DNA of 64,000 bases from Nemertoderma westbladi (taxonomy: Eukaryota; Animalia; Xenacoelomorpha), in contig JAUCBJ010002087.1 of the NCBI GenBank assembly GCA_032718475.1, positions 1 through 64,000 on the forward strand, written 5' to 3'. Below are positions 21,350-44,200 of the stretch, one piece after another (within the stretch, counting starts at the first letter, position 1; every line of letters starts with the position of its first letter). Both the position numbers and the translations under genes were made by a program. Under the pieces are notes generated by a model. That model was not told where the DNA came from. It did no database searches and saw only the letters and a list, made by a program, of their open reading frames with translations.

Positions 21350-24300
21350 CTAATTTTTATTTGAGGCAGGAGACAAATTACAATCCCCCGTCTCGATGCG
21401 TGTCTCCTCTAATAACACGATATCTTGGACCGGTCGGTCCAAGGTGTGTAAACCATTAGTTTTACACTTCTTTGGGTGCGGACACTTGCACCTAATTTTC
21501 ACAGTGACTGTGAGCACTATGTTTTGCACGTCTGGGTGTGTGTGCAAGATCACTCCCGTCTCCCAGTACTTTCTCTTGACAATCGGCTCGGTTATCAATA
21601 CGTAATCTCCCCTTTGGAGACTCCGAACCGTTTTGTACCACTTTGTTCTGGTGGATATGGTGGGAAGATAGTATTCCCGCCAATATTCCCAGAATGTGTA
21701 CGCTACGAATTGAGTTATTTTCCAGCTCTTACGACTGTATAGGTCGGCACTAATGGGTTCTGATGCCGGCACAAGAAATGCTGGACTCTGCATTAGCAAA
21801 TGATTCGGCGTTAATGCAACACCGTCTGGTAACATAGCTATCGGCCTCGAGTTTAATGTATGCTCGATTTCGATGAAAGCTGTGACCAGTTCGTCGTCGG
21901 TAAGTTGTTTGTTTACAGGCAACGTTTTGGCAATGGCCTGCTTTACAGAGCGAACTAAACGCTCCCAACTTCCTCTTCTCCAAGGACTTTCTGGAGTATT
22001 AAATCTCCACTCTACTCTTTGCGGCAAAAGTGCTGCAGAAATTTCCTTATTCTGTGCCGCTTTATGAACCGCGTTCAACTCGCTATTCCCTCCGACAAAG
22101 TTTGTACCCTTGTCAGAGTAGAACGCCTTTACTAGTCCTCTCCTGGCCATAAATCTCTTCAAGGCCAGGAGCAGAGATTTGGTCGACATGTCTGCCACAC
22201 GCTCAATGTATATGGCTCTACTAGCCATACATGTCAGTAGCAGACCCCATCGCTTGTGGGTCAACCGTCCACTCTTTGCTTCAATCGGACCAAAACAATC
22301 CACCCCTGTGTTCGTAAAGGGTGGGTCATATGCCTGCACTCTCGCTTCCGGGAGTTCAGCCATCTCCTGTTCCAATACTCTGGCGTTCACCCTCTTGCAA
22401 ACCAGACAGGCGTCATACATAGTGCCTACTGCCCTGCTTGGCTGCAATAAAATGAATCGCTGTCTCGCTGCCGACAAACAGTGTAACTTTCCCGCGTGAT
22501 GCAACCTCTTGTGTATATCCCATAGAATCGCTCTTTGCAATTCTATTGGGTGACTAGGGATTATCACTGGGAACCTGAACTGTGAGTTTATGTCGACAGT
22601 CTGGATTCTCGATCTATGACAAATCAAACCCTTATGGATTAATGGACTCCATTTTCTAAGGGGTTTATAGAGAACTGGTCGTTGAGCCGATAATAGATAG
22701 AATTCTTTGGGGAAGGTACACATTTGATAATGTTTCAAATGCTTTAATTCCGCTTGATCAATCTCATCCTCTGTCAGAGGTTGTTTCAATTTCTGAATTC
22801 GCTCACTATTAGTGCTCGTTTGTTCTCCTAAATGTTCCGAATGTTTTATACAAAGGTACGAAATGTATCGGCTTAACCACGCAGTTCTTTTACAAATTGT
22901 CAGCCAAGAGGCAGACGAATTTAGTAATTTGTCATAAACACTACATGGCTCAAATGCCAGCGATGGTTGTCCGCTAACTAATGGAAGTTTCGAATCCAAA
23001 CCCGCAGGTTTGGAAACCAAAGGCTCCATTTTGTCAGTCATTTTCTGTCCGTCACTTACTAATTGTGACTCCGGTTTAGTCTGTAAGGGTGGTTTTATGT
23101 CATAACTTACCCTTCCGGACCTAGTAGTCACGTAAGTCTGTTGGTCTGACAGGTCTCCGGGCCGCTCCAATGACTCTTCAGGCCGCTCCAATGACTCTTC
23201 AGGCCGCTCCAATGACTTGAGTTTGGCTTTAGACTTTGACTTAGAGACTTTCCCCACTTTGACTTCTGCATCTTCAGGCATCGGATTGGTCACTATCTTT
23301 AGTCGCTCTGGCCAATGTTCCTGTGTCCTCGTTAGAAAATCAGGTCCATGCAACCAAAACTCCTGCGACTCTTCCTGACAGAATTCCGCCGGCATTGCAC
23401 CTCTCGAAGTTATGTCGGCCGGGTTTAACACTGCCGGACAATGTCTCCATTGTTCCTTCGTCGAAAAGTCAACGATTTGAGCGCGTCTGTTGGCCACAAA
23501 TGTCTTTAGTGCAATATTGTCGGCCGCAATATATACTAACACTAAGGATGCGTCCGTCCAATAGAATAAGGTCAATGTCGTGTCTAACTCCTTTGTTATC
23601 TGCTTACTTACCTCGACTGAAACTACAGCCGCCTGTAACTCTGCACGAGGGACAGTCATGTATTTGACCGGCATTGTCTTTGATCTAGAAGTCACAAAAG
23701 CCGTCTCAAATTTATCCTGACTCACCTCTCGGCGAAGGTAGGCTACCATACCAAAGCCGGTGTCACTTGCGTCACTAAACAAGTGGAGTTCGAGATCAGC
23801 TGGGAATACCAGCTGATTCGGAAAGTAGGAACGGGGTACATCTATATTTTTCAATAGATGCAACTCGGCCTCCCACTCTCTCCACTGCTTTGCATGTATA
23901 GGAGATATTGGTTCGTCCCACTCTAAGTCGGACAACCAAATTTTCCTCATGCACGCTCGTGCCTGTAATATTACCGGACTGATAAATTTCATCGGGTCAA
24001 ATAGTCTACTTAAAGTCGATAAGCAAATTCTCTTTGTCAAAACTTTGTCTGGGCTACTGGGCTCAAATCTAACTCTTACCTGGAATTTATCCGTGTTCGG
24101 ATTCCAAGCGAGTCCCAGTACTCGCGCCATGGGGATGGGTTCTACCCCCAATTCAATGTCTCCGCTCCCGCGATCCTTTACCGGGAACGACTCTAATAGG
24201 GCCTCCGAGTTCGTAGTGAACTTGGTCAGAGGAAATCCCCCTGTAGCCAAGCACTCCTGCAGGCCGTGAGCCACTTCTATGGCTTGTTCCGCCGTGTCCT

Positions 24301-24889
24301 TGGACACCAATCCGTCATCCATATAGAAGTTTCTCAAGATGGACTCGATAACCTCTACTGGATACTTACCAATCTGGGCTGTTGCCGTTTTCTTTAGAAC
24401 AAACAGCGTGCCATTCGGACTATCGCGGGCGCCAAATATCCTAACGTACATTTGGTATGTAACCACTGGGCCGGATAAGTCTTCATTCTCGTACCAGAGA
24501 AATCGAAGACTATCCTGGTCTGCCTTACAGGCTCTTACCTGGTGGAGCATCGCCTCGATGTCACAAGTAAATGCGAATCGCCGCTGTCTAAAACGCAACA
24601 GTATTCCTATCAAATAATTATTCAGGTTGGGACCATCCATCAACTCTGAATTCAGGGACATACCTCTATAGACTGCTGCGCAGTCGTTGACTACTCGGAC
24701 TTTGTCTGGTTTGTCAGGGTGAGTCACATAGTGGTGTGGGAGGTAATAAGTCTGGTCTGTCACTAAGTCAGGGTCCTCTACCTTCCCAGCAAATCCCTTG
24801 GCAAAATAGTTGTTGATCTGGGCGCAATACTTCTCCCTAATGTCTGGATTCCTTAACAACCGAGCCCTTACTCCGTTCAATCTTTTCAA
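21350..24889 (-). CDS. pol: BEL/Pao Pol (RT, RNase H, integrase), 1179 aa open
   Basis: YYLPHH, KVRVVNDCAA, CDIEAM, NFYMDD (RT); LHLFSDAS and QWRHCP..NPADITSRG (Pao RNase H); HKRLHHAG..CLVC, GVDCFGP, YSDKGTNF and WERLVRSVK (integrase). It is in frame with gag-pro, separated only by a TAG at 24911-24913. Confidence 0.95.
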   Translation of the reverse strand: MKRLNGVRARLLRNPDIREKYCAQINNYFAKGFAGKVEDPDLVTDQTYYLPHHYVTHPDKPDKVRVVNDCAAVYRGMSLNSELMDGPNLNNYLIGILLRFRQRRFAFTCDIEAMLHQVRACKADQDSLRFLWYENEDLSGPVVTYQMYVRIFGARDSPNGTLFVLKKTATAQIGKYPVEVIESILRNFYMDDGLVSKDTAEQAIEVAHGLQECLATGGFPLTKFTTNSEALLESFPVKDRGSGDIELGVEPIPMARVLGLAWNPNTDKFQVRVRFEPSSPDKVLTKRICLSTLSRLFDPMKFISPVILQARACMRKIWLSDLEWDEPISPIHAKQWREWEAELHLLKNIDVPRSYFPNQLVFPADLELHLFSDASDTGFGMVAYLRREVSQDKFETAFVTSRSKTMPVKYMTVPRAELQAAVVSVEVSKQITKELDTTLTLFYWTDASLVLVYIAADNIALKTFVANRRAQIVDFSTKEQWRHCPAVLNPADITSRGAMPAEFCQEESQEFWLHGPDFLTRTQEHWPERLKIVTNPMPEDAEVKVGKVSKSKSKAKLKSLERPEESLERPEESLERPGDLSDQQTYVTTRSGRVSYDIKPPLQTKPESQLVSDGQKMTDKMEPLVSKPAGLDSKLPLVSGQPSLAFEPCSVYDKLLNSSASWLTICKRTAWLSRYISYLCIKHSEHLGEQTSTNSERIQKLKQPLTEDEIDQAELKHLKHYQMCTFPKEFYLLSAQRPVLYKPLRKWSPLIHKGLICHRSRIQTVDINSQFRFPVIIPSHPIELQRAILWDIHKRLHHAGKLHCLSAARQRFILLQPSRAVGTMYDACLVCKRVNARVLEQEMAELPEARVQAYDPPFTNTGVDCFGPIEAKSGRLTHKRWGLLLTCMASRAIYIERVADMSTKSLLLALKRFMARRGLVKAFYSDKGTNFVGGNSELNAVHKAAQNKEISAALLPQRVEWRFNTPESPWRRGSWERLVRSVKQAIAKTLPVNKQLTDDELVTAFIEIEHTLNSRPIAMLPDGVALTPNHLLMQSPAFLVPASEPISADLYSRKSWKITQFVAYTFWEYWREYYLPTISTRTKWYKTVRSLQRGDYVLITEPIVKRKYWETGVILHTHPDVQNIVLTVTVKIRCKCPHPKKCKTNGLHTLDRPVQDIVLLEETRIETGDCNLSPASNKN

Positions 24890-24910
24890 GGCTAAGCTGT
24901 AGTTGTTCTC

Positions 24911-27900
24911 CTACTTAGGTGGTTGTCGACGCCACAACATTCCAACTTCAAAATGTCCAGTCGGCAGCAGACGTATGGTGTCTTCCATCATCTCCAGCGA
25001 CCGCTTCTCATCAGTGGACATGGCTAGGTCATATCCACCGGGTTCCATTGCGTCCCTATCCAGCCATTCGACGGTTCTAGCTCCTGTCTCGAGGTCCTGG
25101 CGTATCAATTCCTTCTGTAGCTCCTCCTCACTGTATTGGAAAATGTCGAGGTCTCGATATTTAGCCACTTGACCCTCCACTATGTCGGTATAAGTCAAAA
25201 CGTTACTCAGATAAGTAGCGTGGGCCGCTGAACCAGACCCACGGGTCTGATAACAGTAGTCCTCGGGTTCACTATCTGTCCGGTCATTGTGAAGTGGTTC
25301 CGACAACCTAACATTATCGGGAATCAACTCCTCGCCCGACTCGCTAAAGTCACTATAGTGGTCGATACAGGTTCTCCTAAACTCGTCTATGTCTGGTGGT
25401 TCTACTAACGGTGGTTGAGTTATAGGCTGTAATTCGTCGTATCTGTCTATTGGCTTGTCGCCACCTGTAAACTCATAAGACATGGGTACTCTTGTATACC
25501 AACCTAGTATGGTCCTATGGGCATGTGGTCCATTGACATGCGGCTCAGCTGGTCTCGTTTCCCATATTTGGTGGGCGATCAGCTGTTCTGCACCAATCAA
25601 CATAGAAACATTCCTATAACCTACCTGGTGTCTCGGTATTCTGAGCTTGTCAAAATACTCCTGTGCTATGGGACTCATTGGCGGCACCTTACCTAACTGC
25701 CTGCCGAATCCCTTCATAGCTAGACACTTAAATCCGTCCAATGGCAAAGCTTTCCGTTCTTGTCGAGTATGTTGGTCTCTCGGAAGTAGGGAGTCTAGTT
25801 CTACCGAAATTCTGTGTCCCTTGAGGTCTCCTACTCCATGCATAGACTTCAACTCTATTTGGATCTCCTCGGCGTCCTGGAAGCTAGAAACGGCTCTCGC
25901 CACTTCCTCGTCGATATACGATAATGTGGACGCAGTGTCCAACATCACATATATTCGCTTAGATCCCTTATCGCCAGTAAGTTTCACCGGAATCACGCTA
26001 AATATTTCCGACGTGGCCGATGATAAATACGTCCACGCGCTGGTCGATGAACTATCCGCGGTGAAACCTTGGCAGGTCACCTCTCTTGCGCTCGACTCGC
26101 CATCCTCGTCCGACGAACCTGGTTGATAACCATCGTCCTGAATGCCGGTATATGTATTCCTTCTTATCGATACGGGTTCTTTGCTCCCCTTCCTGTGAGG
26201 ATTTCGCTGTAAGTAACGGTCCGTTGGTGTATGGAAATCCGCATGTAGCAACTTGTGATGTAGTCTGCCGCATTCCATGCATCCGTCCTTGCTGTTCGGG
26301 CACTGCCGCCATACATGACCTGGCGCAAGACATGCCCAACAGGTGTCCAACGTCCGCACTTGAACTCTTCTCTGTTCTGAATTTAATTCTTTGAACCGTC
26401 TGCAACTATCTAACTTATGGTCGTCAGATCTTACCTCCTTTAGTAAACAGTATTGGCAACCTACAAATCCATCCGGCAACTCCTGTTGCTTTAACCTAGG
26501 TCTATCTAACCGCTCACCTGACCATACTCGCGAGTCTGATCTAAAGGCTAGGGTACTCGAATTATATCTGTCTACTGAGTTAAATGTCACAGTGGTCCTG
26601 TCATCGTCAAAACTTACCATAGACTTACCGGTAACAGGTTTAGACTCTCTCATATTCTCTTCTGAGAAGTTTGATTTCATCTCTGCTACTGCGTCTGTGG
26701 CTATCATGTCATGAATATGCTGAAGTGTCAATACTTTACCTTGGCCCTCCAACTTATTCTCCAATTTGCGCCATTTTTGTCGATAACGCATGTTTAAACG
26801 TCTTATTACGCTCTTTAAAACTTCGGCGTGATCACCATGATGAGGTAGATTCACCGTCCTCAAGATGTCCAATGCGTTCGAAATAGCATTCGCTAAGTTC
26901 AACAGCTCTAACAGAGTTGTAATCCTTCCGCCCTTACCCAAGTCTTCCACTATCGACTGTGCCATCTTGGTTTTATTCCCGTAGATGTCGCTAAGTGTCT
27001 TTATTGCCAACTCAAATGCCCTTTCATTGCCAACGAAGTTGTCAGCAATGGCTCTAGGTTCTCGATGGACCATTTGAAGCAAATAGTTGAATTTCTCATT
27101 GGGAGTAAAGGTGCTGTTGGTTAGCTGTTCATCGACATAGGTTTTGAACGTCCTCCAATGCTTATGGTTACCCATAAACTTCTGGGGTTGTTGCGTCGGC
27201 AGTCCTTGCCTAGCAGCAAACTTACCTATGTCCCTAAGGGTTGCGTCGTTCCGGGTTAACAAATGGTTTAGTTCCGCAGGGTTGTTAAGTCTGGTCCTTT
27301 CCCGGTGGTTCAAACTTACCTGCTCCGCGTCCGTCCTTCTTTCCTTATAGTTTCGGGACTTCTGACGTCTCATGTCTTCCTCTTCATCGCTCGATTCTGT
27401 GTCAGTCCTTAGCGCTCGCGATGGTTTGCGCGCCGAGGCCCTGATCCAAGCATCCTGAATAAATCTTTCGGCTGAATTTTCGAAATCGGGATTATGGATA
27501 TTCGGGACAGGCGTCCTTACCTGAGGTCTATGTGGTATAGTTTCCTCCGATATGCGTACTCGTTGACTAGGTTGGACTTTATCTAACTCAGGCCTGCTAG
27601 GATTAGAATTACTTCTTACCTGGGCTGCTTCCTTTAACCGTAGGTTGCTAAGCATGTCCGTTATAGGTTGGATGTGCAGCGATATAGCTTGCGCTAAACT
27701 AGCACTCAACTCATCCCTCGTAATAAATTCCTGGCTAGGGTTCTGTTGTATAGTCGGCTCTATCTGAGTAATCCGCTGTCTCTCATATGATCCCTCTTCC
27801 GGTTTAACCCGGAAGTTCTCCGTCGAACTGGGTCGGCGCTCCGTCTGCGTATTCCAAACCCGCGGGTTCGGTTCGCCAAATACTCGGCCCGTCGGAGTTT

Positions 27901-29001
27901 CTCCTCTAAACTCTTCGTTCTCGCGTTCGGTATGTAGTGGTGCGGTGTTCTGATGCCGTGGATTCTGCGCGATAGGTGAAGCACTAATACCAACTGGTGT
28001 GCGATATGTAGAGAACGGTTTAGCGATCCGTGTACTCGTAATAGCTGGACCAGGTATAGGAATTCTGGTCATCGTCGACTCGCAGCCTTCTGCAGTGCGA
28101 ACAGTTCTCGCAACTCGGTCCCTACACTCGCCCCACATTCTTCGATCATTCGCATCCCCTTCTCGGCGATTTCATTCGCCTTTCTAGTCCGTTCTTCGCT
28201 CTCTAAATTTAATCTCGCACTTTCCAACTGCGCCAGTTTACGTTGTTCTTCTTCCCTCGCAAGTCTCGCTGCGCTCTCTTCTTCCAGTCGCGCCTTCTCT
28301 TCGTATAATGCGCGTCGCTCTTTCTCGATCTCGAATTCGCGTTCTTTGCGCTCGCGTTCGAGTTGGAATTCGCGTTTCTTCTGTTCGCGCTCGAATTGAA
28401 GTTCGCGTTCTTTCGCTTCCCGTTCGCGTTCAAGTTGGAGTTCGCGTTGTTTCTGTTCGCGTTCGGCTTGAAGTTCGCGTTCCTTGCGCTCGCGTTCGGC
28501 TTGCTCACGCTTACTTATGTCCTCCAACTCGCGCAGCTTCGCGTCTAACTTACGTGTGCGCTCCCGTTCTCGTTCGGCTTCCTTCCGTGCCTCCGATGCA
28601 CGCAAAACTTCCGCCTGCTGTTCGTCCAGTCGGCGTCTTCTCTCCTCTGCCGAGTTGTGAGAAACAAGGGATCTAGCACATATAACCTTCCCTCGCGCGT
28701 GACTAACCTGGGAATCGCCACTGTCTCTAGATGCGTCGTCGGGTGGAGTTAACGTTCTCTGTTGGATGTTGTCCGTCGTTGGTAGCACCTGACCCGGTAC
28801 CACCACTCCACTCTGCATCAGCCAGCCGGTAACTTCCCGTTGATACATGCGCTCCTCTTTATCCTGCATATCTTCCCGCTCCACTAAATTTCTCGACACT
28901 GCGTCATTCACCTGAGTCGCCTGTGCTTGTGATGCCCATAGCAACCAGTTCTCCGTCCTAACTCGTTGAAATCGCTCCGATAACGCGCGGTGCTCTAACA
29001 A
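24911..29001 (-). CDS. gag: BEL/Pao Gag-protease with N-terminal coiled coil (two frames overlapping at 28069-28138)
   Basis: E/R/K-rich coiled coil in ORF 28069-29001. ORF 24911-28138 has the gag core (KFMGNHKHWRTF...EKFNYL), the triple Zn-knuckle (CQYC..H..C, CWACLAPGHVWRQC, CMECGRLHHKLLH) and protease MLDTAS. Confidence 0.88.
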
Positions 29002-29303
29002 GGCTGCTAAAACCCTGTCGTAAACCCTCGTAACAGCAATCAGCCTAATGTACTACTGTACTATTGTACGAGACCAGTGAATACAGTAATCTAAACTAAC
29101 AGCCTAAAGGAATACACTCTCTGTCTTACTGTACGCAGTACAGTGCCTAATACAGTAATCTAATTCGTATTTACTGTACACAGTACAGCAAAACAAAACG
29201 TCCTTTACTGTTACGAAGTAACAGTAAATAATACAGTAATCTAACTTAACAGCCTAAGAATACACTCGTCACTGTAAGCAATAGGCCTACAGCACACAAA
29301 AAA

Positions 29304-29313
29304 CGTCCCTTAC
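29304..29313 (-). promoter_or_regulatory. Non-tRNA primer-binding site of the outer BEL element (GTAAGGGACG), complementary to its own LTR
   Basis: Directly abuts the 5' LTR end and lacks TGG. It is the exact reverse complement of LTR-internal sense CGTCCCTTAC (30916-30925 and 13049-13058). Confidence 0.65.
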
Positions 29314-29400
29314 TGTTAAACGAACTACCCCAGCCTAACCAATAAAGACACAAAACTGTTCTATTTACTAGACGGGGCAATCAGGAGCGTATATTACTAA

Positions 29401-30020
29401 CTACGCCTCCACCACGGCAATCCTAAACGCGGTCGACCGCCCTGCAGAGAACGGCGAGCTCTCCCTCCTCGAACTCACAGGCTACAGGCGCCGCGCTGCA
29501 GCCCAATTCATCTCCAATGGCTCGCACCACAAGCTCTGCCGCAGTAAAGGGTGTTGGCGGCCGACCCCCACATGCGTCTGCCGTCTCTGCGACGACCAGG
29601 CGACGGACAAGGACCACGGCCTCAGTTGCACTGGCGTCCCGACTCTACTAACAACAGTAAAACGCTCACTGTTCCTGTACGCCGTGAAATGATCTATTCT
29701 AATTTTTACACGATCTATTTTAAAACTTCCCCCAGCCACGCTATAACCAAACATTGAATTGTACAATATTTCAACCGTGCAACGACATTTTATTATATTA
29801 TATACATTTTTACTATTTTTATTATATTATATATTCATTTTATTATATCCCCATCCCCAAATAACCTATAAATAATGTGTATCCCATTTTCCATTATCTG
29901 TCATACAATACAGTATTATATGGTCACATAACAACTTTCATATTTTACAGTAGGCCTACCTACCTTTATGTGCATGTTTATTTTATTTACACCATATGTT
30001 GGTATTAAAGCTTTCGTTTC
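29401..30020 (+). mobile_element. 5'-truncated non-LTR retrotransposon (620 bp)
   Basis: 10-bp TSD ATATTACTAA (29391-29400, 30021-30030), and absent from the other LTR. Open frame 29402-29692 ends ...GSHHKLC...CVCRLCDDQATDKDHGLSC...* (C-terminal CCHC of LINE ORF2). AT-rich 3' UTR with ATTAAA and a TTTCGTTTC end. Confidence 0.85.
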
Positions 30021-32297
30021 ATATTACTAAATGTAGGGTTTCAGGTACGGAAAACCACTACTTCCCGTTGGATGGCGCTAATCTGCCGTCCGCTAATATA
30101 TTTCCTAAATTTCTACGGCTCCTACTAAATTCTCGTTCCTTTCTCTACCAATTACTCGATAGAGAGCTAACTGTTCGAATATATGAGCCACGCGGGAATA
30201 ACCAAAACAATAAACCCGAATCGGCTCCCTAAGCTGACTTAAAACGAGTGTGAGAGATTTTACACTCTGAGTGTATTTTATAGCCTAATACTGTAATATT
30301 ACTGTAAATTTGCGCTTACAACTACGTCCTTTCTAATCGAATCTAATCGCAATACTGGGGTTCCCTAACAGAATATGTGAATGTGAGAATATTTAAAAAT
30401 AATCGAAAATCGGTACGGTAATTATTTCGGGACTCTAACTTATCTGCGGCTGGCTTTAGGCCAGCAATTTACTGATGCTCGTTGCGTACTGTATACTGCG
30501 ATGTGAATTTTGTCCGCTAATTCAAATAACCGCCCAGCGTGAATAGTGTACGGTACTCTAAATTTATTACCTAACTACCCTCCACTATGCAGCGTACAAA
30601 TTCCTAATTTTACTAATTAATTTCAGTCACAAATATGTAACGGCGTACTAATTACTAAGTATTCCAGAATGCGCAATTCTAAATTATTATGCAACGGGTC
30701 ACACTAGCAACAGCCTAAAATACCGTATTATTTTCGACCTAATCAGAAATTAATTACAGTAAGCTAAGAAATAGAAATCAATCAAAGGGAAAAGAGCGCC
30801 TATCCAAGCATTCGTGATTTATTAGGCACACTTTAGTAACGCACCAATCAGCATAACACAATCGCGATCTACAGTTTAGCTAGCAATTCAGAACTCGCAA
30901 TTCGCAACTCGCAACGTAAGGGACGCAGATCTCTCCCGGCTACGTCTAAGCTTCCTAACTAACCCAATTCCTGTCCCCCTAGTACTACAAAATAGAGACA
31001 AAACCTGGATCATCAGCCCCTAATTGCCGAACCGGCGTTGTAAAAGCTTCTGTGGGATATAACTGGCCCCTTTGCTTCGCAATCCAGTTTCCCCCCAGGC
31101 GCTGGAATACTCTAAAAAAGGTTCTCTAACTGTATATCTATTCCCCTCGCCCGCAAGGTACCGTTACAGGTGTTTTAACGGACATAAAAGTCATTCTGCT
31201 ATATACGTGTTTTAGCGGACATGGTAAGGCAAAAAACCTACAATGCACCAAATGCCTTTCACAGCTTGGCCGTGATGATTCATATTACGACATCTAACAG
31301 CCGGTTGCTGACATGGAAACAGCCATTGGACGCATGGTTCTTTGTTTGGCTTGAGCCAATCAGAGCGATTTTTCCTGTCGACGTGTAGCTTTTCGGCCGA
31401 TCATAAGGAGAGTGTTCAGTCTTACTGTTTTCACTTGATACTTTGTTGTTATTGCTGTCTAAGCCAGAAACACCGGCTCTAGAGTTAATTCTTTTCATAC
31501 TTTAAGAGGAAACATTAGTAGGCTTAAATTATAGAGCGTATGACTGTTATCAGTCAAATCCATTCACAATTCAATACTTTGTTGTTATTACTGTTCAACA
31601 TACATTATTATACTGCTATTTACTGTTGTGTTTGGTTGAATATTATTTGGAGAACATATATAAAGAACCCAAATTTCCCAATTTTCTTGATACACTACAG
31701 GTTAGAGAGACGGGTTATATATATAGCGATTGCGACTTATATTGTTGTGGTTTGTAGTGAATTTAATGCTATTTGATAAGCACTACATTGGTCCGTTGCT
31801 ATTCCCTTTATATATGATAAAATACATTGACGGGCGGCAAATTAATGAGCAGTATTGTGTGTTACCGGTAGTGTGCATGATTGTGACCGATAACTAAGCA
31901 TTTCCTAAAGAATGCGACTCATACGTGAATCATAAGCCTTACCGACTTACCGTTGTGATTGGTATAAGTCATATCTCTGTTTACTTAGATAGAGCGCCAC
32001 GTCCTAAAAGGAACTGTTAATATTTCCCGAAAGTGAATAATATTAGTCAGAAATTAATTATTAACGATCAATCGAATAATACAATACCGTAAGCTTCACT
32101 GCAATAATAATCTAAGCCGACAGAATCCAGCCTCCCGGGATTATCCAGCGGATGAATGGACGCGCACTAGGCTGGCTTCTGCTAATGTTGTGTTTATTGG
32201 TATTAAATATTTGTCATCTTCTAAAGTATATTTATAAATCAAAAGACATATAAATTTTGGCAGGTTAAACTGCTAAAGGTCTTCAAAAGCGCGTACA

Positions 32298-32308
32298 ATA
32301 ACAGTCAT
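32298..32308 (+). promoter_or_regulatory. Non-tRNA primer-binding site of the inner BEL element (ATAACAGTCAT), complementary to its own LTR
   Basis: Abuts the LTR end and lacks TGG. It is the exact 11-nt reverse complement of ATGACTGTTAT at 31540-31550 (and 42107-42117). Confidence 0.72.
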
Positions 32309-32579
32309 TGACTTTATTGCAGTAAGCAATAAAGTTGAAAGTACCGATCGACCGGTAAACCTGAACCGGCACTTCTGTAGGTCCGTAGGCCCAACTGCCC
32401 TAACCGGTACTTCCAGTATAAGTACATTAGTATTATTCGATTTTGATTATAGTATACCGGTAGGTCTTAGTATTTAATCAGGGAACGGCCGCCCTGATTT
32501 TTATTTGAGATTCTACTTATTTCTGTCGGTTTTATTTACTAGTAGGCTAATATTGAGCAGAAGGCGTGTGACCCTGCTC

Positions 32580-33160
32580 AGATTGTTCAGATAATTGTAG
32601 GCTGAGCTGCTGTCTGACTGTTGTTGGGTTTGGAGAGATTACGGCGTGTGTAGAGTTTGTCTGATAAAGTGCTGTTAGTAAGTTGGGGCAGCCATATGCT
32701 GCAAGGTCAATCCCCTCTTAAAGAATAAGTCGTACTACCGTGTTAGAACGCATACTAACTAACTATTTCAGAATCTGCATATACTGTAGTTTATTTAGGC
32801 TTGATCGTAGTCTGCCAGCGTTTTGGCCTGTGTTTGTTTGTGTGGTCTGTTCAGGTACCGTAATAGTTATTACTCAGATATTTTGTAGGCTGGATTGTTG
32901 TCTAGCTATTATTAGGTCTGAAGAGATTGCTGCGTGTGTAGAGTTTGTCTGATAAAGCTCCGTTAGTAAGTTGGGGCAGCCATAGCGGTAAGGTCTATCC
33001 CCTCTTAAAGAATAAGTCGTACTACCGTGTTAGAACGCATACTAACTAACTATTTCAGAATCTACACGTACGGTAGTTTATTTAGGCTTGGCGGTAGTCT
33101 GCCAGCGTTTTGGTTTGTATTTGTTTGAGTATTCTGTACGGGTAGCGTAATATTTATTAT
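32580..33160. repeat. Tandem duplication (~288-bp unit x2) in the 5' UTR of the inner BEL element
   Basis: GCGTGTGTAGAGTTTGTCTGATAAAG...CCCCTCTTAAAGAATAAGTCGTACTACCGTGTTAGAACGCATACTAAC at ~32644 and ~32932. Confidence 0.85.
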
Positions 33161-34475
33161 TCAGAGTTTATGCGATTATTCGCAACATTCATGTCCCCAA
33201 GTTTATTCCTACAGTAATTGTGCTTGTTATACATACCGTTATAGTTAAATTAACCCCGGTACTACACGGGCTGCTCGGCGTAGGACAAGACTGGTGACTT
33301 TGTGCTTCGGTCACTCCAGCAGATGCCGTGGTTCTTTTAACTGTTCAAGTATATTTAACTACTGATTATTTGTTATACCGGTACTTGTACCTAATTTAGG
33401 GTTTAGTGTACAGTGCTTTCCGAAGTAATTAGTGTAGGCAGTATATTTGTGTTGTAAAGTGGTTGATAGGCACATTCGTTAGCTCTATTAGCTTCTGGGT
33501 AGGAACAATCCGTGATACATAACGTAGTACCTATAGCGATACGGTTATAGGTCGTCAGGCGGTGGTATTTTCCTATCTGGACAGTACAGTATATTTACTA
33601 CTACTTATTATTTAAATACCGTAGTACCCTGTCCATTGTAATAACCAGAATTCTAACCCTTTGTTAGGCTGGTTTGTAGACTTCCTGTAAAATTACCCTA
33701 AAAAATTCGTACGTAATATTTGTTGTGTTTAATTAGAGAATTAATCTCACCCATATCGTAAGTAATTTGTAGTATTAAGTAACTTAGGTAAATTAGAATT
33801 ATCAGTTTTAGTGTCAAATAAATAGCACTTCACTGAGAGCTCACAGCTTCTGTGTAGTGACTCCCCCAGAAATAATAACATTTATTTCAAATATTGACAA
33901 AAACCCATTTAAACGGGTATATATCTATTATAAATCAACTCAAACGATTTATAAATAGTAGGCCTGCCAGACAACAACTAGGTCTCAATATCAGTTGGAC
34001 TACTGCTTAAATAACGGTAATAAAGTAAGTTAAAGTAACCAAGTAACCCTAAATATTCAGAAATTCAATTATTCTAAAATAATTGATAATTGACATACCG
34101 GTATTTACCATAGGCTTATTATATTTATCTCTATAAATTTGAGCTGAAATCATACCGGTACTCTGTAATTAATCTAGTCCGTAATTACACTTATATATAC
34201 TATAAGTGTAAGCTGTATACCGGTATTCACTATAGGCCTATTATATATTTATATATATCTGTGCTAAATTTATATACCGGTACCCTGTGACAAACCTAGT
34301 TTACAATACTTATATATATATTATGAGCATACCGTTATTCTAATATATTATATATATATCACGCTACACTGAGTAGCAGTATCGGCAATTAATTATTAGG
34401 CTAACGGTGATACTGAATTACTAGACTTACTTTGACTGTATTTGTAACCGTAGGCATTCAACTGTGTAAACAAAC

Positions 34476-37400
34476 ATGGCTGACACAAGGCAAACTCTGT
34501 CAGATAGTCTCCTAGAAACAACAGACTGTTTCTCAGATCAAAGTGTAGAGAATCCCAGACCGAGGTCTGAAACCCCTCATACTGTAAGAAGGGCAACCCC
34601 TGCAGTGGTTGTATCAGAACCTAGGTTGGTAGAAGCGATTTCGCATTTTGCGAAGTTAGTGAAGCGCCGTTGGTCTGCCATAGGCACTCGGGCCCAAGTC
34701 AAGCGGGATCAAGAAGAAGCTATAAAACAGCAGCAACCTCCTAGCCAAGAACCTAGTTCTCAGCGGCCCGATAGCTCCAGTAGTTCGGATACTGTTGAGC
34801 GGACGCCCGAACGCGGAGCGAAGATGGCGGATATGGTTTATGATGAGCGGCCAACCTATGAAGAATCAACCGACGCCACTTCTTCTCAAGTGGAAAGCGA
34901 GGTGGAAAGCGAAGTGGAAAGCGAATTAACAGCAGCAGAGAAGCCGCGAACTAGAGACGCCATTGACATATATCTGTCAGACTATCAGCGATTCATAGGA
35001 GACGAAGAGTTGAGGAGACGACTGTCTGGACTTCGCCCTAATAGTGAAGGAACCAAGCTTGTGTTGGACGCAATCGATGCGGAAATGTTAGCTGCAGAAC
35101 AAGCTAAATGTGATGAAAAACTCCGCCTCGTTAGAGTCCAAGAAGAACAAATAAAGAAAAGAAGGATAGAGGAACAAAAGGCGACGGCTATGGCGGCGGC
35201 TATGGCAGATGCAGAAGCAGAAAGAAAAGCAGCAACGGCGGTGGCTATGGCAGATGCAGAAGCAGAAAGAAAAGCAGCAAAGGCGGTGGCAAAGGCAGTG
35301 GCAGAAGCAGAAAGGAGAGCATCTGAGCAGACTACCCAACTGGAGTTGGAGAATCTGCAAGAGACACAAGACAGTATAAATAAACAGTTTACTGCTAATC
35401 AAATGCAGATGATGAGAAAATCTACTCCCAAGCGCCAAGGATACACATCCTCGGAGGAAGGCGATACTACCGATCCTGAAGGCGGAGGAAATAGATCTCA
35501 TCTAAGTAGGCGTAGAAAAACATATTACCGTCGCAAATTGCCTGATTTGCCCCCAGCTGTTAAAAGACAGCTAACTAGCACAGACTTAGGTAGTGCAGAA
35601 CCCATAGAACAATTTATCCAGGTCAAAAGACTCCCTACTATAGTCGATGAACCTGAAATAATTAGGCCTGTTGTTCCCAAAGTCACTTCTGTGCTAGAGA
35701 CCCCTACACTTCCAGAGCTTAACTCTAAATTCCCTTTACATAGTACTATACTGCCTGTACCCGGTGGAACAGTCCATGCAAATACCCCTGTCCAGATAGC
35801 AGAGAGGGAAATCAATAATTTGTCTCCCGTCGTCCCGCGTCAGCCCGCTACTATGTTGGCGACTCCCGCTTCGGCGGTTGAGTGGGTGGAAGAGGGACGG
35901 TGGGGGATGAATCTCCTGCTAGGACAGATGCAGGAGACTGTCCACCAACTTAAGGGAACAGTGAGGGAAGGTAGAGCAGAGTTGCAAGAAGTGCAGCAAA
36001 GTATCGCGCTAGAACGCGACAAATTAGTCAATATACAAAAGGGCATACCAATACCCCCTGTAACATTGTGTCCACCTGTTAGGTCTGAAGTATTACATGC
36101 GCAAGGTGTGGAGCCTACACGCATCTATACTGCTAGTGAAGTTGAAACTCCTATAGCAAACCCTATTAAGGGTGATTATAGACCTGTTATTAATGATATT
36201 CCCTATAGACCTGATAATGATCCGAGAAATTTATATACCGATAATTCGATATTAAATAACACGATGGCCCAAGAAAGCTTTACGCGTCAGATGGCTAGAA
36301 CAGAAGCCCGCCAAGCGGTCAAAGTGGGAGAGATCGTCAAATTCAATGGAGATGAGATGAAATGGTTACCTTTCAACGAATATTACAAAGATAGCATACA
36401 GAACTCTGTACTATCTAACGGAGAGAAACTTAGATTCCTCATCAAGTGCTTGGAAGGACCTCCCAAGTTAATGGCGTTAAAGTTTATTGGACATCCAGAT
36501 GGATTAAGACAAGTTTGGGATACATTAAACATCAGGTATGGTAACAAGGATAATATAGCTAAGTATTTGTATGCAAAATTAGTAGCCCCCCGACACTTCC
36601 TTAGTAGCGGGATTATAGAGTTTTCCGATGAAATTCAAGAGATCTGTAGACAACTGGACTGGTTAGGTAAGTCGCATGAATATCAGAGTTCCATGGTCAT
36701 TGGAGCCGTAGTCTCTACTTTACCAAAGGGTGGAGTATGTACGCGCTGGGACAAGAAAGTGTTGTACATGAATGAACAACAACGCCGAAGCCCTACCATG
36801 GCTGATCTCATGTCCTTCTTAGATAGTGAAGTAAAATTACAACTCATAAGGCAGTCCAGAGAGAAAACATCGGAAAATAAGGTAAGTGAGAAACCCGTTT
36901 CTAGGAGAAGGATAATACCAGTGTGTTATACTGACGACGGCGAAAGCCAAGCTTCTCAAGAAGAGGACAGCGGGAAAGACACCGAACGATCTTACTATGA
37001 CAACAAGACCTATAAAGACGTAAGTAAATACAAGTCTCGAACCAGTGACAGGAGAGAACAGGTAACAACAACTCCTCCTACGTCTCCTAAGAGAATTCAC
37101 GGAAGAAAGCCCGAAGAAAGAACGAGAGTGCAGAACGTTAACCAAGTTAAGGTGAGTAACATCAAACCAAAATGTGCGCTGTGCGACGGGCCCCACCGTT
37201 TGAGTGCGTGTGCAGAATTCCTAAAGAAATCCCTGGCAGATAGACGTGGAGTCCTGTGGGATAAGCGGTTATGTTATAACTGTCTCAGACGCGGACACCA
37301 GCGGCGAACCTGTTACTCTGACGCAAGGTGTGCTAAGTGCGGCGCGAAACATCATAGCTTGTTGCACACGGAATTCGAACGAAACAGCCCGAGTCAGGTA

Positions 37401-38606
37401 AGTGAGCCCAAATCACATGTCCAATTCAGTGATGTGAACGACACTGACCAAAGTTCTGAGTGGGAAGGATTCTATACGGACGAATTCTCCGATGCCAACG
37501 AATCCTGTTATCTAATAAATACCGCAGTGTATCGAGCACTTACGTACGAAAAAGACACCGACACGGAGTTCCCCCCAACCACCTTTGACAAACAACCATC
37601 TTGGAAAGCTCCAGCTTCCAACGTAGGAATCAGAGAATTTCCTGTAGTTCAAGTAAGAGTTCACGGTCTTAACAAAAGCTACATAGTGAACGCCCTCCTT
37701 GACTCCGGCAGCACAGGAACATTCATCGATCAAGAACTAGCCGAAGATATCTTTGCTGGACAACCCAAATTCCAAACTAAGTTGAATATGTCCGGAATTA
37801 TGCAGGTTTGGAAATCTACCATAACGGCAGATTACTATGTAGGTGCGTTGTCCACCCCCCAGGATAAATTAGGAGCACAAAGTATAAGGTCAGTAAAGAT
37901 GGTGGCTATAAAGAACTTCGCTACTACCCAAGCAGACCTTTATAATTGGGACGAGGATGAGAGCATCCAACATCTTAAGATACCTCGATTCCAGACAGAT
38001 TATCCTGGAGTGCAAATACTCATCGGCCAAAACGCGCATGAGGCGCTCGAGACATTGGAGAAACGGCCTGCTCAACCGCAGCCATTACAAACTTATGCGG
38101 TAAGAACTAGAGTAGGTTGGTACTTTACTGGCCCTTCCCGCAGAACTCTTGAAGAAAGATTGCCACAAGACCGGCTACTTCAAGTAAAGGATTGGGAAGA
38201 GGGGAGCAGTGAAGTGGACGAACCCACTGAGGTAACACCATACTCCTCAGATAATGAAGATATTAACTCCAATGTAGATCAATGGAGACATCGCCCCGAG
38301 ATGATTAATATAGCCGACATCGCTTCCAGAGGAGCAACTCCTCAAGAACGGATAGATACTCCCGGCTGGTTAGGTGGACCCGACACCCTAAGTAAAGAAG
38401 AAGATGAATGGCCTCCTCATCTTACCACTGAGGAGATTAGACAGGCCAAGGGAGCGGAGGAAGTAACACGACAGCCTAATCGCCCAGCTGGTCGCTTAGG
38501 TTTACTGGAAAGAGACCGAAAACTGTCCGGAAACCATGGAAGGCCGGATACTCTTCCTACGACCACTTCCCTAATTCGACAAAGATCTAGGGACTCCATA
38601 ACGTAA
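34476..38606 (+). CDS. gag: BEL/Pao Gag-protease fused to a remnant of the RNase H C-terminus (1376 aa)
   Basis: Coiled coil, gag core (KFNGDEMKWLPF...EKLRFL), triple knuckle (CALCDGPHRLSAC, CYNCLRRGHQRRTC, CAKCGAKHHSLLH) and protease ALLDSGS, then directly QWRHRPEMINIADIASRG...WLGGPDTL...WP. No YxDD and no DDE motif. Confidence 0.92.
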   Translation: MADTRQTLSDSLLETTDCFSDQSVENPRPRSETPHTVRRATPAVVVSEPRLVEAISHFAKLVKRRWSAIGTRAQVKRDQEEAIKQQQPPSQEPSSQRPDSSSSSDTVERTPERGAKMADMVYDERPTYEESTDATSSQVESEVESEVESELTAAEKPRTRDAIDIYLSDYQRFIGDEELRRRLSGLRPNSEGTKLVLDAIDAEMLAAEQAKCDEKLRLVRVQEEQIKKRRIEEQKATAMAAAMADAEAERKAATAVAMADAEAERKAAKAVAKAVAEAERRASEQTTQLELENLQETQDSINKQFTANQMQMMRKSTPKRQGYTSSEEGDTTDPEGGGNRSHLSRRRKTYYRRKLPDLPPAVKRQLTSTDLGSAEPIEQFIQVKRLPTIVDEPEIIRPVVPKVTSVLETPTLPELNSKFPLHSTILPVPGGTVHANTPVQIAEREINNLSPVVPRQPATMLATPASAVEWVEEGRWGMNLLLGQMQETVHQLKGTVREGRAELQEVQQSIALERDKLVNIQKGIPIPPVTLCPPVRSEVLHAQGVEPTRIYTASEVETPIANPIKGDYRPVINDIPYRPDNDPRNLYTDNSILNNTMAQESFTRQMARTEARQAVKVGEIVKFNGDEMKWLPFNEYYKDSIQNSVLSNGEKLRFLIKCLEGPPKLMALKFIGHPDGLRQVWDTLNIRYGNKDNIAKYLYAKLVAPRHFLSSGIIEFSDEIQEICRQLDWLGKSHEYQSSMVIGAVVSTLPKGGVCTRWDKKVLYMNEQQRRSPTMADLMSFLDSEVKLQLIRQSREKTSENKVSEKPVSRRRIIPVCYTDDGESQASQEEDSGKDTERSYYDNKTYKDVSKYKSRTSDRREQVTTTPPTSPKRIHGRKPEERTRVQNVNQVKVSNIKPKCALCDGPHRLSACAEFLKKSLADRRGVLWDKRLCYNCLRRGHQRRTCYSDARCAKCGAKHHSLLHTEFERNSPSQVSEPKSHVQFSDVNDTDQSSEWEGFYTDEFSDANESCYLINTAVYRALTYEKDTDTEFPPTTFDKQPSWKAPASNVGIREFPVVQVRVHGLNKSYIVNALLDSGSTGTFIDQELAEDIFAGQPKFQTKLNMSGIMQVWKSTITADYYVGALSTPQDKLGAQSIRSVKMVAIKNFATTQADLYNWDEDESIQHLKIPRFQTDYPGVQILIGQNAHEALETLEKRPAQPQPLQTYAVRTRVGWYFTGPSRRTLEERLPQDRLLQVKDWEEGSSEVDEPTEVTPYSSDNEDINSNVDQWRHRPEMINIADIASRGATPQERIDTPGWLGGPDTLSKEEDEWPPHLTTEEIRQAKGAEEVTRQPNRPAGRLGLLERDRKLSGNHGRPDTLPTTTSLIRQRSRDSIT

Positions 38607-40228
38607 TTATATATGGAGTGGGTGTGTGACTATATTATTTTATATTTTTTTTATTATTATTTTATATTTAGGTATGGATTATTATGTACTTTATTATAAT
38701 CGTTTTATTTAATTTTATTTAGTGGAATGTTATTTAGATTATTTAGTAGATTAGTGCAATATATTAGTGTTTATTACGTAATTACATAATATATCTAGTG
38801 CGACGGCGAGAAATAATTCTTTTCTCTTTCCTTACTGTCCGTATTATATTATAAATGCGAGACTATAGTAAGATGACATGTCCGTACTTATTAAAGTACA
38901 ATAAAGCTCCTACTATATTTAAGTATTATTGGTAGGCAGAGTATTAGGAATGCAAAGTTCAGATCCTCGTGTCTCGGCTAAACCAAGCTCTGGGTAGACC
39001 TTGGAAACGACTTGCCTCTTCACACTGACATTGCTTCGTGCGATATTGCTCTTCTACCTTATATTAAATAATACTTATAGTAGCGTGATGTCCCTATAAC
39101 AGTAGCGTAAAACGCAAATAAATCTGTTAAACCTTTTGACCATCTGTAATTCTAGTCGATTAAGATATCGCGGCACCCACCGATATACTTGAAAGACAAA
39201 TTCTAGAATCAGTGGTTAACGTCCCCAGACAAGTTCTGGAATAAATCGGTGCCCATCTTAAATATTAATTTAATATTTATTAAAGTCTGTAAAATTCAGA
39301 TCCGTTAACAATTCTAGTCGATTAAGATATCGTAGCACTTACCGATACTCTTAAAAGACAAATTTCATAGAATTAAGGATCCTATGTCCCCAGACCTGCT
39401 CTGGAATCAACTTATGTCAATTTTAACATCAAATAATAAAATTCACGGGAATAAATTTAAATTCATATTTTAAATGAATTTCATAAATTGTCATTTTGTA
39501 CAATTTATAACATTCCCAAAATTCCATTAATTAATAGATCATGGGAGCGGAGATTCATCCTATTGAGTGTACTAGAGTGTGAGAATCTCCAACATATAGT
39601 CAATAGCCGATAAAATTTATAAAATCATGCATAAAGAGGATATTGACAATTAAAGAATTATTATTAAATAGCATCCCAGATCTGTATGCATGAGAATTAC
39701 CCTAATTCTACCGCTAGCATTCCATAATGTCACCATAGCAACACCCACGCTAGAATTAGAAGCAAGTTAAGAAAACAATAGAGAGCTTGTCACATTGCAT
39801 AGCATAGAGAATACATAGCACGCTGTTAGTATCCAAGGATACACAGTAATAACGTGACATTCTGGAAGGCACTGACTAACGGACAAATGGCCTGTATGTG
39901 TACAATTGGTGACAGTTGTGTGGAATTTGTGCGTTTGTAGGCGAATGTTACTGCTAAGGTGTGTTTACAGTAGCTAGTCGCAATTGTGAAAGTAACCCAA
40001 CTCTCCTATAGAAAGAACCTAAAGTGGATTCAAGCCTTTGGGACGGACAGTGGAGTGACTTGTGCCGGTTATCGTTGTCGTACTGTTGCTACATGTTGGC
40101 GTAAATACCGCGACAACGGTACATCGGCGCTGAGGATCCCACTGTCCGGGGGCAAAGAGAGGTGGGCAGCGACGTCCGCTCGCCTAAACATAAACTCATT
40201 TCGATATTAACAAACTCAGATAGCAGAT

Positions 40229-41218
40229 ATGACGGAGTTGATAGAAGATGATCTTGGTATCAAGGAGCGATATACTCTACCTTTGCAAGCATTTGTGGAT
40301 AGCTTAATACGCGGTGAAGCCGATCCAACCATTACGGAGGACGATGGTCGTTATATCGAACCGCCGATGTCCCAAGAGCAACTTGCGCGTGAATTGGACT
40401 ATCGAAAATCCACCGCGCGCTATACGCATCGTAATAGTACGTATATGGACTTCCTAACTACCGGCCATCCTATCGATTTACATGATACGGACGATGTAGA
40501 CACCGAAAGGGAAATGGTTCTATTTAAATATCATACCCAGCGGAGTCGGAACGATAAAACGAGAATAGATCACGAAAATTCTATTCGTAACAGACTGGGA
40601 AGACGAACCAATATGCCTAGAATCTGAGGAGATTCAGCCTATCGCGCCCGGAACAGCGACAACGATTACATCCTAGAATGGTATCAAGGTCCACAGTGTC
40701 TCACTGCGTACGATTATCGCCATGCCAACTATGTTTCTAGGCAACGTTGTCGGTTATGCGCATCGAGAGACCACGATACGCCCATGGACACCAACGTCCG
40801 CTGTTCCTATATCCAAGAACAACCGACTATGGAAATTTATTGCGCATATTGCAGACTCAATAACCTGCACATTTTTGCGGTTTGCCCTCAATTTATGACT
40901 CAATGTCACCATTGTCAACTAAAGGGACACGCCAGTTTCGATTGCCCTTTTAATCGCGATTTGGAAAGCGTAGATGAAATGATCACACTACGTTACATTA
41001 GAGCTTGGGAAGCGAAGGCTGATTTACATCGTGATTCGCGCCATCGCTATTATCCTGAACGCGCTTACGAAGGAATTTATGCGTTCCATCCTTATCTATT
41101 CGCTTCTGTCGAACAGAAATCGCGCATATCGAGTTACAGGAAGTATATCGACGGCCTTACGAATACCGAGCTCGTGAACGCGAGTTGGAAAGGACCATTA
41201 AACCCCGGAGGTTTCTAG
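40229..41218 (+). CDS. Accessory ~330-codon ORF with three Cys/His zinc-knuckle-like motifs, interrupted by one in-frame TGA
   Basis: ORFs 40229-40627 and 40784-41218 are in the same frame, and 40628-40783 is stop-free. Motifs: CRLCASRDH...C, CAYCRLNNLHIFAVC and CHHCQLKGHASFDC. Confidence 0.65.
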
Positions 41219-44200
41219 CTGCCTATAGTCAACCCACGGCCCTCGTTCAGACCACTCGTAAAGGACCCGTAAGAGCGGCTGTCTTAAAACGCGCTCTCAA
41301 AGCCGTTAGACCCCTCTCCCCCGACGTTGATGTCAATCAACCCGGCACTTCGACTGGCGGATACACCGTCCATAATTCTACACCCTCTGATGCAATCATA
41401 TTGCACGCTTCACCCAGGAGTTATAGCCCTCCTTGTAAAGTGGCTCGCCCCAAAGAGAAAAGGACTCTGGCTAGCTTTAAAAAAAAAAAAAAAACTGCGT
41501 AAACGCCGTCCGCGCAAGAAAGACTAACTGTTTAGAGTATTTACGTATATTAGAAACTGTGATTTTGTATATTTCATAGACTCAAATCCCATTTTCTGGG
41601 AGCGGTGTAAAAGCTTCTGTGGGATATAACTGGCCCCTTTGCTTCGCAATCCAGTTTCCCCCCAGGCGCTGGAATACTCTAAAAAAGGTTCTCTAACTGT
41701 ATATCTATTCCCCTCGCCCGCAAGGTACCGTTACAGGTGTTTTAACGGACATAAAAGTCATTCTGCTATATACGTGTTTTAGCGGACATGGTAAGGCAAA
41801 AAACCTACAATGCACCAAATGCCTTTCACAGCTTGGCCGTGATGATTCATATTACGACATCTAACAGCCGGTTGCTGACATGGAAACAGCCATTGGACGC
41901 ATGGTTCTTTGTTTGGCTTGAGCCAATCAGAGCGATTTTTCCTGTCGACGTGTAGCTTTTCGGCCGATCATAAGGAGAGTGTTCAGTCTTACTGTTTTCA
42001 CTTGATACTTTGTTGTTATTGCTGTCTAAGCCAGAAACACCGGCTCTAGAGTTAATTCTTTTCATACTTTAAGAGGAAACATTAGTAGGCTTAAATTATA
42101 GAGCGTATGACTGTTATCAGTCAAATCCATTCACAATTCAATACTTTGTTGTTATTACTGTTCAACATACATTATTATACTGCTATTTACTGTTGTGTTT
42201 GGTTGAATATTAATTGGAGAACATATATAAAGAACCCAAATTTCCCAATTTTCTTGATACACTACAGGTTAGAGAGACGGGTTATATATATAGCGATTGC
42301 GACTTATATTGTTGTGGTTTGTAGTGAATTTAATGCTATTTGATAAGCACTACATTGGTCCGTTGCTATTCCCTTTATATATGATAAAATACATTGACGG
42401 GCGGCAAATTAATGAGCAGTATTGTGTGTTACCGGTAGTGTGCATGATTGTGACCGATAACTAAGCATTTCCTAAAGAATGCGACTCATACGTGAATCAT
42501 AAGCCTTACCGACTTACCGTTGTGATTGGTATAAGTCATATCTCTGTTTACTTAGATAGAGCGCCACGTCCTAAAAGGAACTGTTAATATTTCCCGAAAG
42601 TGAATAATATTAGTCAGAAATTAATTATTAACGATCAATCGAATAATACAATACCGTAAGCTTCACTGCAATAATAATCTAAGCCGACAGAATCCAGCCT
42701 CCCGGGATTATCCAGCGGGTGAATGGACGCGCACTAGGCTGGCTTCTGCTAATGTTGTGTTTATTGGTATTAAATATTTGTCATCTTCTAAAGTATATTT
42801 ATAAATCAAAAGACATATAAATTTTGGCAGGTTAAACTGCTAAAGGTCTTCAAAAGCGCGTACAGGCGTACCTGGCCCACCCTACGCCGCAACTTGCGCA
42901 CGCAATAGTAATCCCCCCAATGTTACTTGTCTTTGACTCCTCCGCACTCCCGTCGTCGCTAACCCCCCGATGCGCCCGCCGCGCTTACCGGTACCCTAGC
43001 CCTCCATCAGAATGAGTAGCTACCGTAGCGGCACATGCAAATCACAAAAGTCTGACAGTCTGAGAAATCCCGTAGGATTATTGTCGAAAGGAATCACATA
43101 GAACCATTTACTAAAGGGTAGAAATCATAGTTCCAACTTGTAATTAATAGTGATCATTGAGATTGATTGAGAAACACAAACAAGAATCGAACAGAAATTG
43201 CAAGTTAACGAATCATTGCAAGAAATCAAAAAAGGGCAGTAATTTACGCAGAAAACTAAGCATCGAATAATAGTTGAAGGTGAGCTGTGTGGGGTGTGGT
43301 GACTAAGCAGAATGTGAGATTGAGATAGGTAACAATGGAAGTAGGCCAATTTATAGGTGATTTGAGAAGGGTGATGCAATCGATCTCTCATTGGCTCCCC
43401 AATCCGAGCTAACATCAGACCAACCTGGAAGCAGTTAGGCCAATAAGAGAGCCGGATTGTGGGCCTATAGCTCCCTGAAATCGTAAATTGCCACCATATA
43501 AGGTAATTTTCCCGATGCTTAATTTGGCGGTACTAATAATATCATGCACAAATATAAATTTAGCGCAATTATAGAGAAATTAAAACCAGTAGCTAGCCTC
43601 ATCAAGGCTAATAACGGCAAGCCCAGATCCAGGGTCCAACAAGGACTTGCTACCCTGGAACTATCTACTTATATCCTATTACAAAATTACATAGGTAGGG
43701 CTACATACTATACAAAATGGATGAATCAAAAATATATGGGCGTTTCAATTTCCTTATCTAAATGTCACTGCGCTATTATGTCTTATCTAAATAATTATAC
43801 TGCATCACGGACTAATATATGATACTATATAATGGACTAATATATTATACTGTATAATGGACTAACATTATTATACTGTATAACGGACTAATATATTACA
43901 TAATGTAGGTACAGCGCCATATACCGTAACACCACACATAGAATCGATCTGAAATTTTGTAACGCGATTATGAACCACCAAAGCAATGTACTTGCAAAAT
44001 TTCATCAAAATCGCCAGGCAGGAAGTGCCTTAACCTAGATAATTATCAGTCAGTATGTCAGTCAGTCAGTCAGTCAGTGTAATGTATCCTGAGATTTTTA
44101 CAGTAAGTATCCCGCTGTCATCCCGCTATCCCGCTATCCGGTATCCCGCAATCTCTGGTAGTTATTTATCTGAAAGAACGCAATCTGTAACGGTAAGCAA

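Follow-up and report, generated by a model that had tools for sequence, protein, structure and literature searches.

The two BEL/Pao elements of the window, the whole 64,000-nt stretch of DNA analysed, probably prime minus-strand DNA synthesis with their own RNA and not with a host tRNA. In each of them, the 10-11 nt that follow the 5' LTR without a gap can pair perfectly with a word within the element's own LTR. Pairing of the same kind and polarity recurs near the LTR end in relatives, changes its letters between families, and is absent in elements carrying a TGG site. In most relatives the primer becomes contiguous only after removal of a predicted LTR intron, and splicing therefore likely builds it. 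A broader reading of these sequences, which we hold to be rather more probable than not, is that a large, multi-phylum branch of BEL/Pao elements dropped tRNA priming. The spliceosome would build the primer at an exon-exon joint within the LTR, and the primer would be ready-made in intron-less lineages, among which the two elements of the window; by analogy, these two likely represent a splice-built primer that has lost its intron.

Nested elements and their primer-binding positions

Self-BLAST comparisons and reading of the junctions resolve the window into three nested LTR elements, an outer BEL/Pao, a Gypsy and an inner BEL/Pao element. The inner element (31039-42864, forward strand) is inserted in the 5' LTR of the outer one. 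Its LTRs (31039..32297 and 41606..42864, forward strand) are 1259 bp long, begin with TG, end with CA, and differ by two mismatches, both internal. The element is flanked by the 5-bp target site duplication (TSD) GGCGT (left copy 31034..31038, forward strand; right copy 42865-42869), and the polypurine tract GGGAGCGG (41598..41605, forward strand) adjoins the 3' LTR. The motif GGAGCGG before the 3' LTR is common to inner and outer elements. These terminal features are those expected of BEL/Pao elements, as are the BEL-type Gag and protease. Gag, with DUF1759 and zinc knuckles, and protease are encoded by an ORF that then passes abruptly into a remnant of the RNase H end (34470..38606, forward strand); DUF1759 was detected in Pfam searches with E 7.5e-12 in the inner and 7e-9 in the outer element, and the protease region is alignable to P0001. 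RT and integrase are missing, the short RNase H-end remnant being all that is left of this region. The attribution of the inner element to BEL/Pao in the sequence-only reading thus holds for Gag and protease, with the amendment that, judged by its coding content, the element is a non-autonomous derivative. Since RT and integrase are absent, mobilisation must take place in trans. Two extra frames, separated by one stop, precede the polypurine tract (40211..41218, forward strand); they are Cys/His-rich, and the only match obtained is a weak one to a zinc knuckle (E 0.008).

The outer element lies on the reverse strand. Its 5' LTR (29314..43931) is broken up by two insertions, the inner element and a 620-bp insert, its 3' LTR (12078..18592) by the Gypsy element, and the TSD CCACA is found at 12073-12077 and 43932-43936. 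The gag-pol region (21350..29052, reverse strand) is in three reading-frame pieces which include DUF1759, Peptidase_A17 (E 1.7e-39), integrase and DUF5641; it is about 40% alike to BEL polyproteins, and shows the RT-RNase H-integrase set of Pao-type elements. Membership of both elements in BEL/Pao rests on such proteins, and the priming trait departs from it. The 620-bp insert (29401-30020) has a 10-bp duplication at its flanks; by eye, a frame rich in Cys and His precedes an AT-rich tail, which gives the insert the look of a 5'-truncated non-LTR element. The Gypsy element entered one LTR of the outer element and the inner BEL element the other; projected onto a single LTR, the insertion points are separated by about 290 bp (13161-13454; 31034-31038).

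The primer-binding position of the inner element, ATAACAGTCAT (32298..32308, forward strand), follows the terminal CA with zero gap and has no TGG. It is the exact reverse complement of the putative self-primer ATGACTGTTAT (31540..31550, forward strand; 3' LTR copy at 42107-42117), the 3' end of which faces the terminal CA without a gap. Absence of a TGG, exact complementarity and orientation had all been claimed from the sequence alone, and reading of the junction confirmed them. An 11-nt match was reached in 14 of 20,000 dinucleotide shuffles of the inner LTR and, within the internal region, at 7 of the 9,263 positions other than the site itself, hence with a chance of about 7e-4; the earlier estimate of ~3e-4 was right in order, if slightly low. 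In the outer element, the primer-binding position GTAAGGGACG (29304..29313, reverse strand) again has zero gap to the terminal CA and no TGG, and its 10 nt (29313-29304) pair without a mismatch with 30925-30916 of the element's LTR, where the putative self-primer CGTCCCTTAC is located (30916..30925, reverse strand; 3' LTR copy at 13049-13058). This match was equalled in 31 of 20,000 shuffles and at 28 of 10,676 positions. The geometry is the same in the two elements and the letters are unrelated, the cross-match of either site to the other's LTR being 6 nt only; the joint chance of both matches is about 1e-6.

No TGG was found within the first 8 nt behind the LTR of either BEL element, nor is the 18-nt site for tRNA-Arg or tRNA-Gly by which ICTV describes the family present at either. 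A complement of at least 10 nt located 0-5 nt behind the LTR is present in both, with 11 nt (inner) and 10 nt (outer) at offset 0. The nested Gypsy element (13455..17810, forward strand; within the outer 3' LTR) served as internal control: a TGG lies one base behind its LTR, and its best self-match is 6 nt. ARAGORN detected no tRNA genes in the 64,000 nt, and no Rfam matches were found in 28000-44500. When the primers of the two window elements were examined for an extension that splicing would build, the best match was 7 nt in the inner element and there was none in the outer.

Family copies of the inner element were searched in contigs of DNA runs (X1, X3, X5, X6) aligned to 29100-32600; contigs aligned to 31465-31635 numbered 248 in X1, 100 in X3, 7 in X4 and 0 in X5, which is tentatively taken for an RNA run. 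In three DNA runs, at a 1% threshold and away from contig ends, no substitution is listed within 31540-31550. Family contigs end, branch or depart from the window at 31551-31554, 1-4 nt behind the 11-mer, and summed contig depth drops about 18-fold at 31555. With divergence setting in directly behind it, the 11-mer marks the right edge of a kept block. None of the 40 differences listed, out of 233 in 29100-32600, falls in the four sites. Loose ends at 31674-31675 indicate that contigs leave the window around the TATA word at 31657. Among the 16 of 32 loose-end rows listed, none lies in the 11-mer in a way that would suggest a family copy with an intron, and for this reason the term intron-less derivative rests on analogy.

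Site and LTR words in related elements

The outer Pol was aligned with 32 homologues, and 78 metagenome loci were fetched. The 5' LTR end could be fixed by a direct repeat in 10 relatives (in L029 the end was adjusted by eye). Two of them, L023 and L061, have TGG-type sites and a self-match of 4 nt; two, L003 and L033, carry contiguous 11-mers; in the remaining six a match of 11-15 nt spans a predicted intron. In five of the latter the match is found only across a predicted GT-AG LTR intron of 76-186 nt (L008, 15 nt; L016 and L019, 12 nt; L022 and L029, 11 nt), and in L078 the 13-nt match needs a weak donor, being reduced to 8 nt under the strict rule. Seven further loci, in which only the LTR start was fixed and the end was set by scan or by eye, all pair across GTAAG or GTGAG introns over 10-13 nt. 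Overall, in 15 of the 17 relatives scored the site pairs with the LTR of the same element, with differing letters. When sites and LTRs were swapped, matches of at least 10 nt were obtained in 1 of 156 and 2 of 342 controls. These pairings and that of the outer element support the central claim of the sequence-only reading, tRNA-independent self-priming in BEL/Pao, well beyond the single match.

GT or AT opens the paired site in 15 of the 17 non-TGG rows, the window's two included. Where there is no spacer, the site opens with GT, or with AT in the case of the inner element. Where a spacer of 2-4 nt precedes the paired site, the spacer starts with T (L008, L016, L018, L019, L025, L029, L045, L046, L056, L057 and L003). 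A TGG-type site is also present in L037. The site of L061, a BEL-type element, lies at 405-425; we take it to resemble the common initiator-Met type, and not Arg or Gly.

Loci were also scanned for spliced matches without given LTR ends. The scan covered 69 of the 78 loci, 9 being left out for too little upstream DNA. A match of at least 11 nt to the locus's own junction was found in 18 of 69 and of at least 10 nt in 20 of 69, newly adding L002, L007, L032, L045, L049 and L070; 47 of 69 gave no match, many of them being devoid of an LTR or a site. Cross pairs of at least 11 nt numbered 18 of 4,692, of which 13 involved the same or sister families, one fell within a weak fork, and four were unrelated. 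The scan is not fully blind, because its settings were chosen from earlier matches.

L033 has an acceptor in one LTR copy and is contiguous in the other (the copies are 88% alike, and possibly two element copies are joined in one contig); in L003 the 11-mer is kept in two LTRs only 74% alike. In a quick RT tree of 79 rows, midpoint-rooted and with no outgroup, self-pairing rows are spread, and those with a TGG group together in a single small clade. A long branch (2.29) leads to the outer element, the placement of which is unsure. L048 and L012 were dropped, as the repeats lie in coding sequence, and L024, which belongs to the same family as L022, was not counted in the scored set. Ten loci (L005, L007, L014, L021, L054, L059, L060, L064, L069 and L070) were dropped from the end-fixed set, their repeat having fixed no LTR end. 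No relatives were found among viral contigs.

Transcription start, folding and source of the primer

The CCAAT box assigned to about 31355 by the sequence-only reading is at 31356..31360 (forward strand). An Inr-like TCAGTC at 31416, 60 nt further, makes a candidate upstream start, and the two words together point to 31418. The weak TATA-like word TTTAAGAG (31501..31508, forward strand), 39 nt before the 11-mer, is present as claimed, but its last base varies: position 31508 is G in the window and A in most family contigs, and the word is therefore not a canonical TATA. The second TCAGTC (31550-31555), raised earlier as a caveat, is likewise there, but it is not kept across family contigs. Canonical TATA words occur at 31657 and 31716, downstream of the 11-mer. 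The two TCAGTC words begin the units of an imperfect direct repeat of the inner LTR (31416-31459 and 31550-31596), and short tandem repeats lie behind the putative primer in both BEL elements. Of 15 relatives, four have a canonical TATA ahead of the primer, at a distance of 31 nt in L016 and of 122-167 nt in L008, L029 and L033; the other 11 have none.

In folding models, the probability of the primer duplex is 0.93-0.94 for inner RNAs starting at 31538-31540, falls to 0.14-0.35 with 4-15 extra bases at the 5' end, and is 0 from 20 extra bases on, the start at the Inr-like word at 31416 included. The models favour a start within 2 nt of the 11-mer. For the inner element, we prefer a primer taken from the 5' LTR copy, in a transcript that begins near it, to one within the 5' leader or from the 3' LTR copy. 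We give somewhat less than even weight to the tentative suggestion that the inner RNA actually begins with the primer. Promoter words are ambiguous and TATA distances vary among relatives, so that the primer is only possibly the first 11 nt of the mRNA, as the Tf1 rule would have it.

The loop from primer to LTR end measures 747 and 971 nt in the window elements, against 46-223 nt in relatives. Helper stem-loops (U5-IR-like) are reported beside the site in Tf1-type self-priming. A 13-bp leader hairpin (32308..32338, forward strand) is found directly behind the inner primer-binding site; fold z values are -3.0 and -4.4 for U5, and -5.6 (the inner leader) and -1.8 for the leaders of the two window elements. 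According to these folds, hairpins flanking the site may help to close the long loop. Conserved flanking hairpins were not found in relatives, 1 of 17 reaching z -2 on either side, and the MFE of the whole region (z -1.06) is uninformative. A second LTR-leader complement of 10 nt pairs 32098-32107 with 32314-32323, and competes with the leader hairpin; a family variant (loose end at 32083) seems by eye to lengthen this pairing.

In the mechanism proposed, transcription would proceed through the LTR word, and the LTR segment of the transcript would fold back to pair with the primer-binding site. As in Tf1, the RNase H activity of RT would then cleave where the duplex ends on its 3' side, and RT would extend the primer into the terminal CA and U5 without a spacer; for the RT-less inner element, both activities would be supplied in trans. 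In relatives, the LTR intron would be spliced out to yield a contiguous primer, and would be lost whenever a spliced copy templates a new LTR. The site had been described as Tf1-style. This description fits its geometry and polarity, and misses the predicted intron which splits the primer in most relatives.

Other explanations have been weighed against self-priming. The idea that the match arose by chance, or that a defective element has a tRNA site damaged by mutation, could appeal to the non-autonomous state of the inner element, and to the scanning of many elements for a match which singly has a probability of ~7e-4. Given that a second element in the same window brings the joint chance to about 1e-6, that LTRs are near-identical and the TSD intact, and that the pairing pattern recurs in relatives, this idea is hardly credible, and may be taken as largely refuted. 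It is quite unlikely that pairing reflects a real RNA structure, involved in packaging, dimer formation, translation or a splicing switch, while a host tRNA half, a spliced-leader RNA or an snRNA primes. The 17 non-TGG rows have differing sites, each matching its own LTR only, and no more than 4 nt (0-4 nt) separate the duplex from the LTR end, the point from which priming has to start. One leader RNA, moreover, cannot serve both window elements, because no site sequence is common to them. Strong hairpins flanking the site in the window elements, and the second LTR-leader pairing at 32098-32107, are nevertheless in keeping with a structural role, and half-tRNA priming is known in copia lineages from the passages available of PMC6317226.

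A further possibility is a variant within self-priming and does not exclude it: the primer may come from the 3' LTR copy, the transcript being circularised at initiation. The presence of the 11-mer in both LTR copies and of canonical TATA words downstream of it (31657, 31716) would suit this variant, and one spliced plus one unspliced copy would explain why the intron persists. However, family contigs diverge from the window in the stretch that holds the 31657 word, they do not keep the Inr-like word at 31550, and TATA words of relatives, where present, are upstream of the primer; we regard a 3' origin as unlikely.

Comparison with known systems

Self-priming from the element's own RNA is best known in Tf1, in which RNase H cuts between bases 11 and 12 (PMC7175516, in the part available); the mechanism is treated in PMC4600332 and PMC5341516, likewise accessible in part. 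According to the passages available, Tf1/Tf2 of S. pombe, Tj1 of S. japonicus and the Tf1/sushi and Tcn1 groups of Ty3/gypsy resemble the window elements in lacking a tRNA site and in having about 11 nt that pair with the LTR. The window elements differ from Tf1 in belonging to another superfamily (BEL/Pao Gag DUF1759, Peptidase_A17) and in having a loop of 750-970 nt. Membership in Tf1/sushi was rejected, since Pfam matches are to BEL/Pao families and not to Ty3/gypsy chromovirus-type Pol. In addition, the primer of the relatives spans a predicted splice junction, and the Tf1 passages available describe none. Self-priming has also been predicted for the TAR lineage of Ty1/copia (Houba, Osr-1), on the basis of a complement of at least 10 bp lying 0-5 bp behind the LTR (PMC6317226, in the part available), an arrangement which both window elements share. 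TAR members are plant copia elements, and splice dependence is not described in those passages. Hairpin priming has been proposed as ancestral (PMC3601003, in the part available). In view of these two proposals, and of an RT tree with no outgroup, the convergent origin put forward in the sequence-only reading is a possibility beside retention of an older state.

Belpaoviridae are described by ICTV as tRNA-primed, with an 18-nt site for tRNA-Arg or tRNA-Gly, their replication being poorly understood (PMC8742986). The window elements conform to this description in the Gag-PR-RT-RH-IN order, the LTRs and the short polypurine tract; unlike it, they have no tRNA site, and the outer LTR is about 2.2 kb long, against the stated 0.2-1.2 kb. 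A search of titles and abstract openings retrieved no BEL/Pao self-priming or splice-built primer. In the passages available, a BEL/Pao survey (PMC3118150) and the Sinbad paper (PMC554778) contain none of the primer-site terms looked for and nothing on BEL/Pao self-priming, and those of PMC8220671, PMC6934838, PMC4558846 and PMC5443660 hold nothing on BEL/Pao self-priming.

If self-priming in BEL/Pao is correct, these would be the third superfamily of LTR elements to share the Tf1 mechanism. Whether tRNA priming or self-priming came first becomes testable on a tree holding both states. If the primer is made by splicing, the start of reverse transcription would be tied to RNA processing. The primer site might also be beyond the reach of silencing by tRNA fragments, and annotation tools seeking a TGG would plausibly miss sites in many BEL/Pao elements. 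C. elegans Cer7 and Oikopleura Tor reportedly use self-encoded or otherwise non-tRNA primers (a tRNA-like RNA or a spliced leader). They too would depart from plain host-tRNA priming, but their primer is said not to be an LTR segment.

A few other features of the window may be mentioned. Prominin is encoded at 4058-6901 in one open frame of 947 codons, apparently intron-less, and its best matches are fish proteins, 24-27% alike, which points to a divergent animal as host. In IDH2 (57319-58939), two parts are separated by about 75 bp. The region 47800-55200 holds about 400 copies of a 17-bp satellite with a strong strand skew, which accounts for open frames of 2000-2500 codons.
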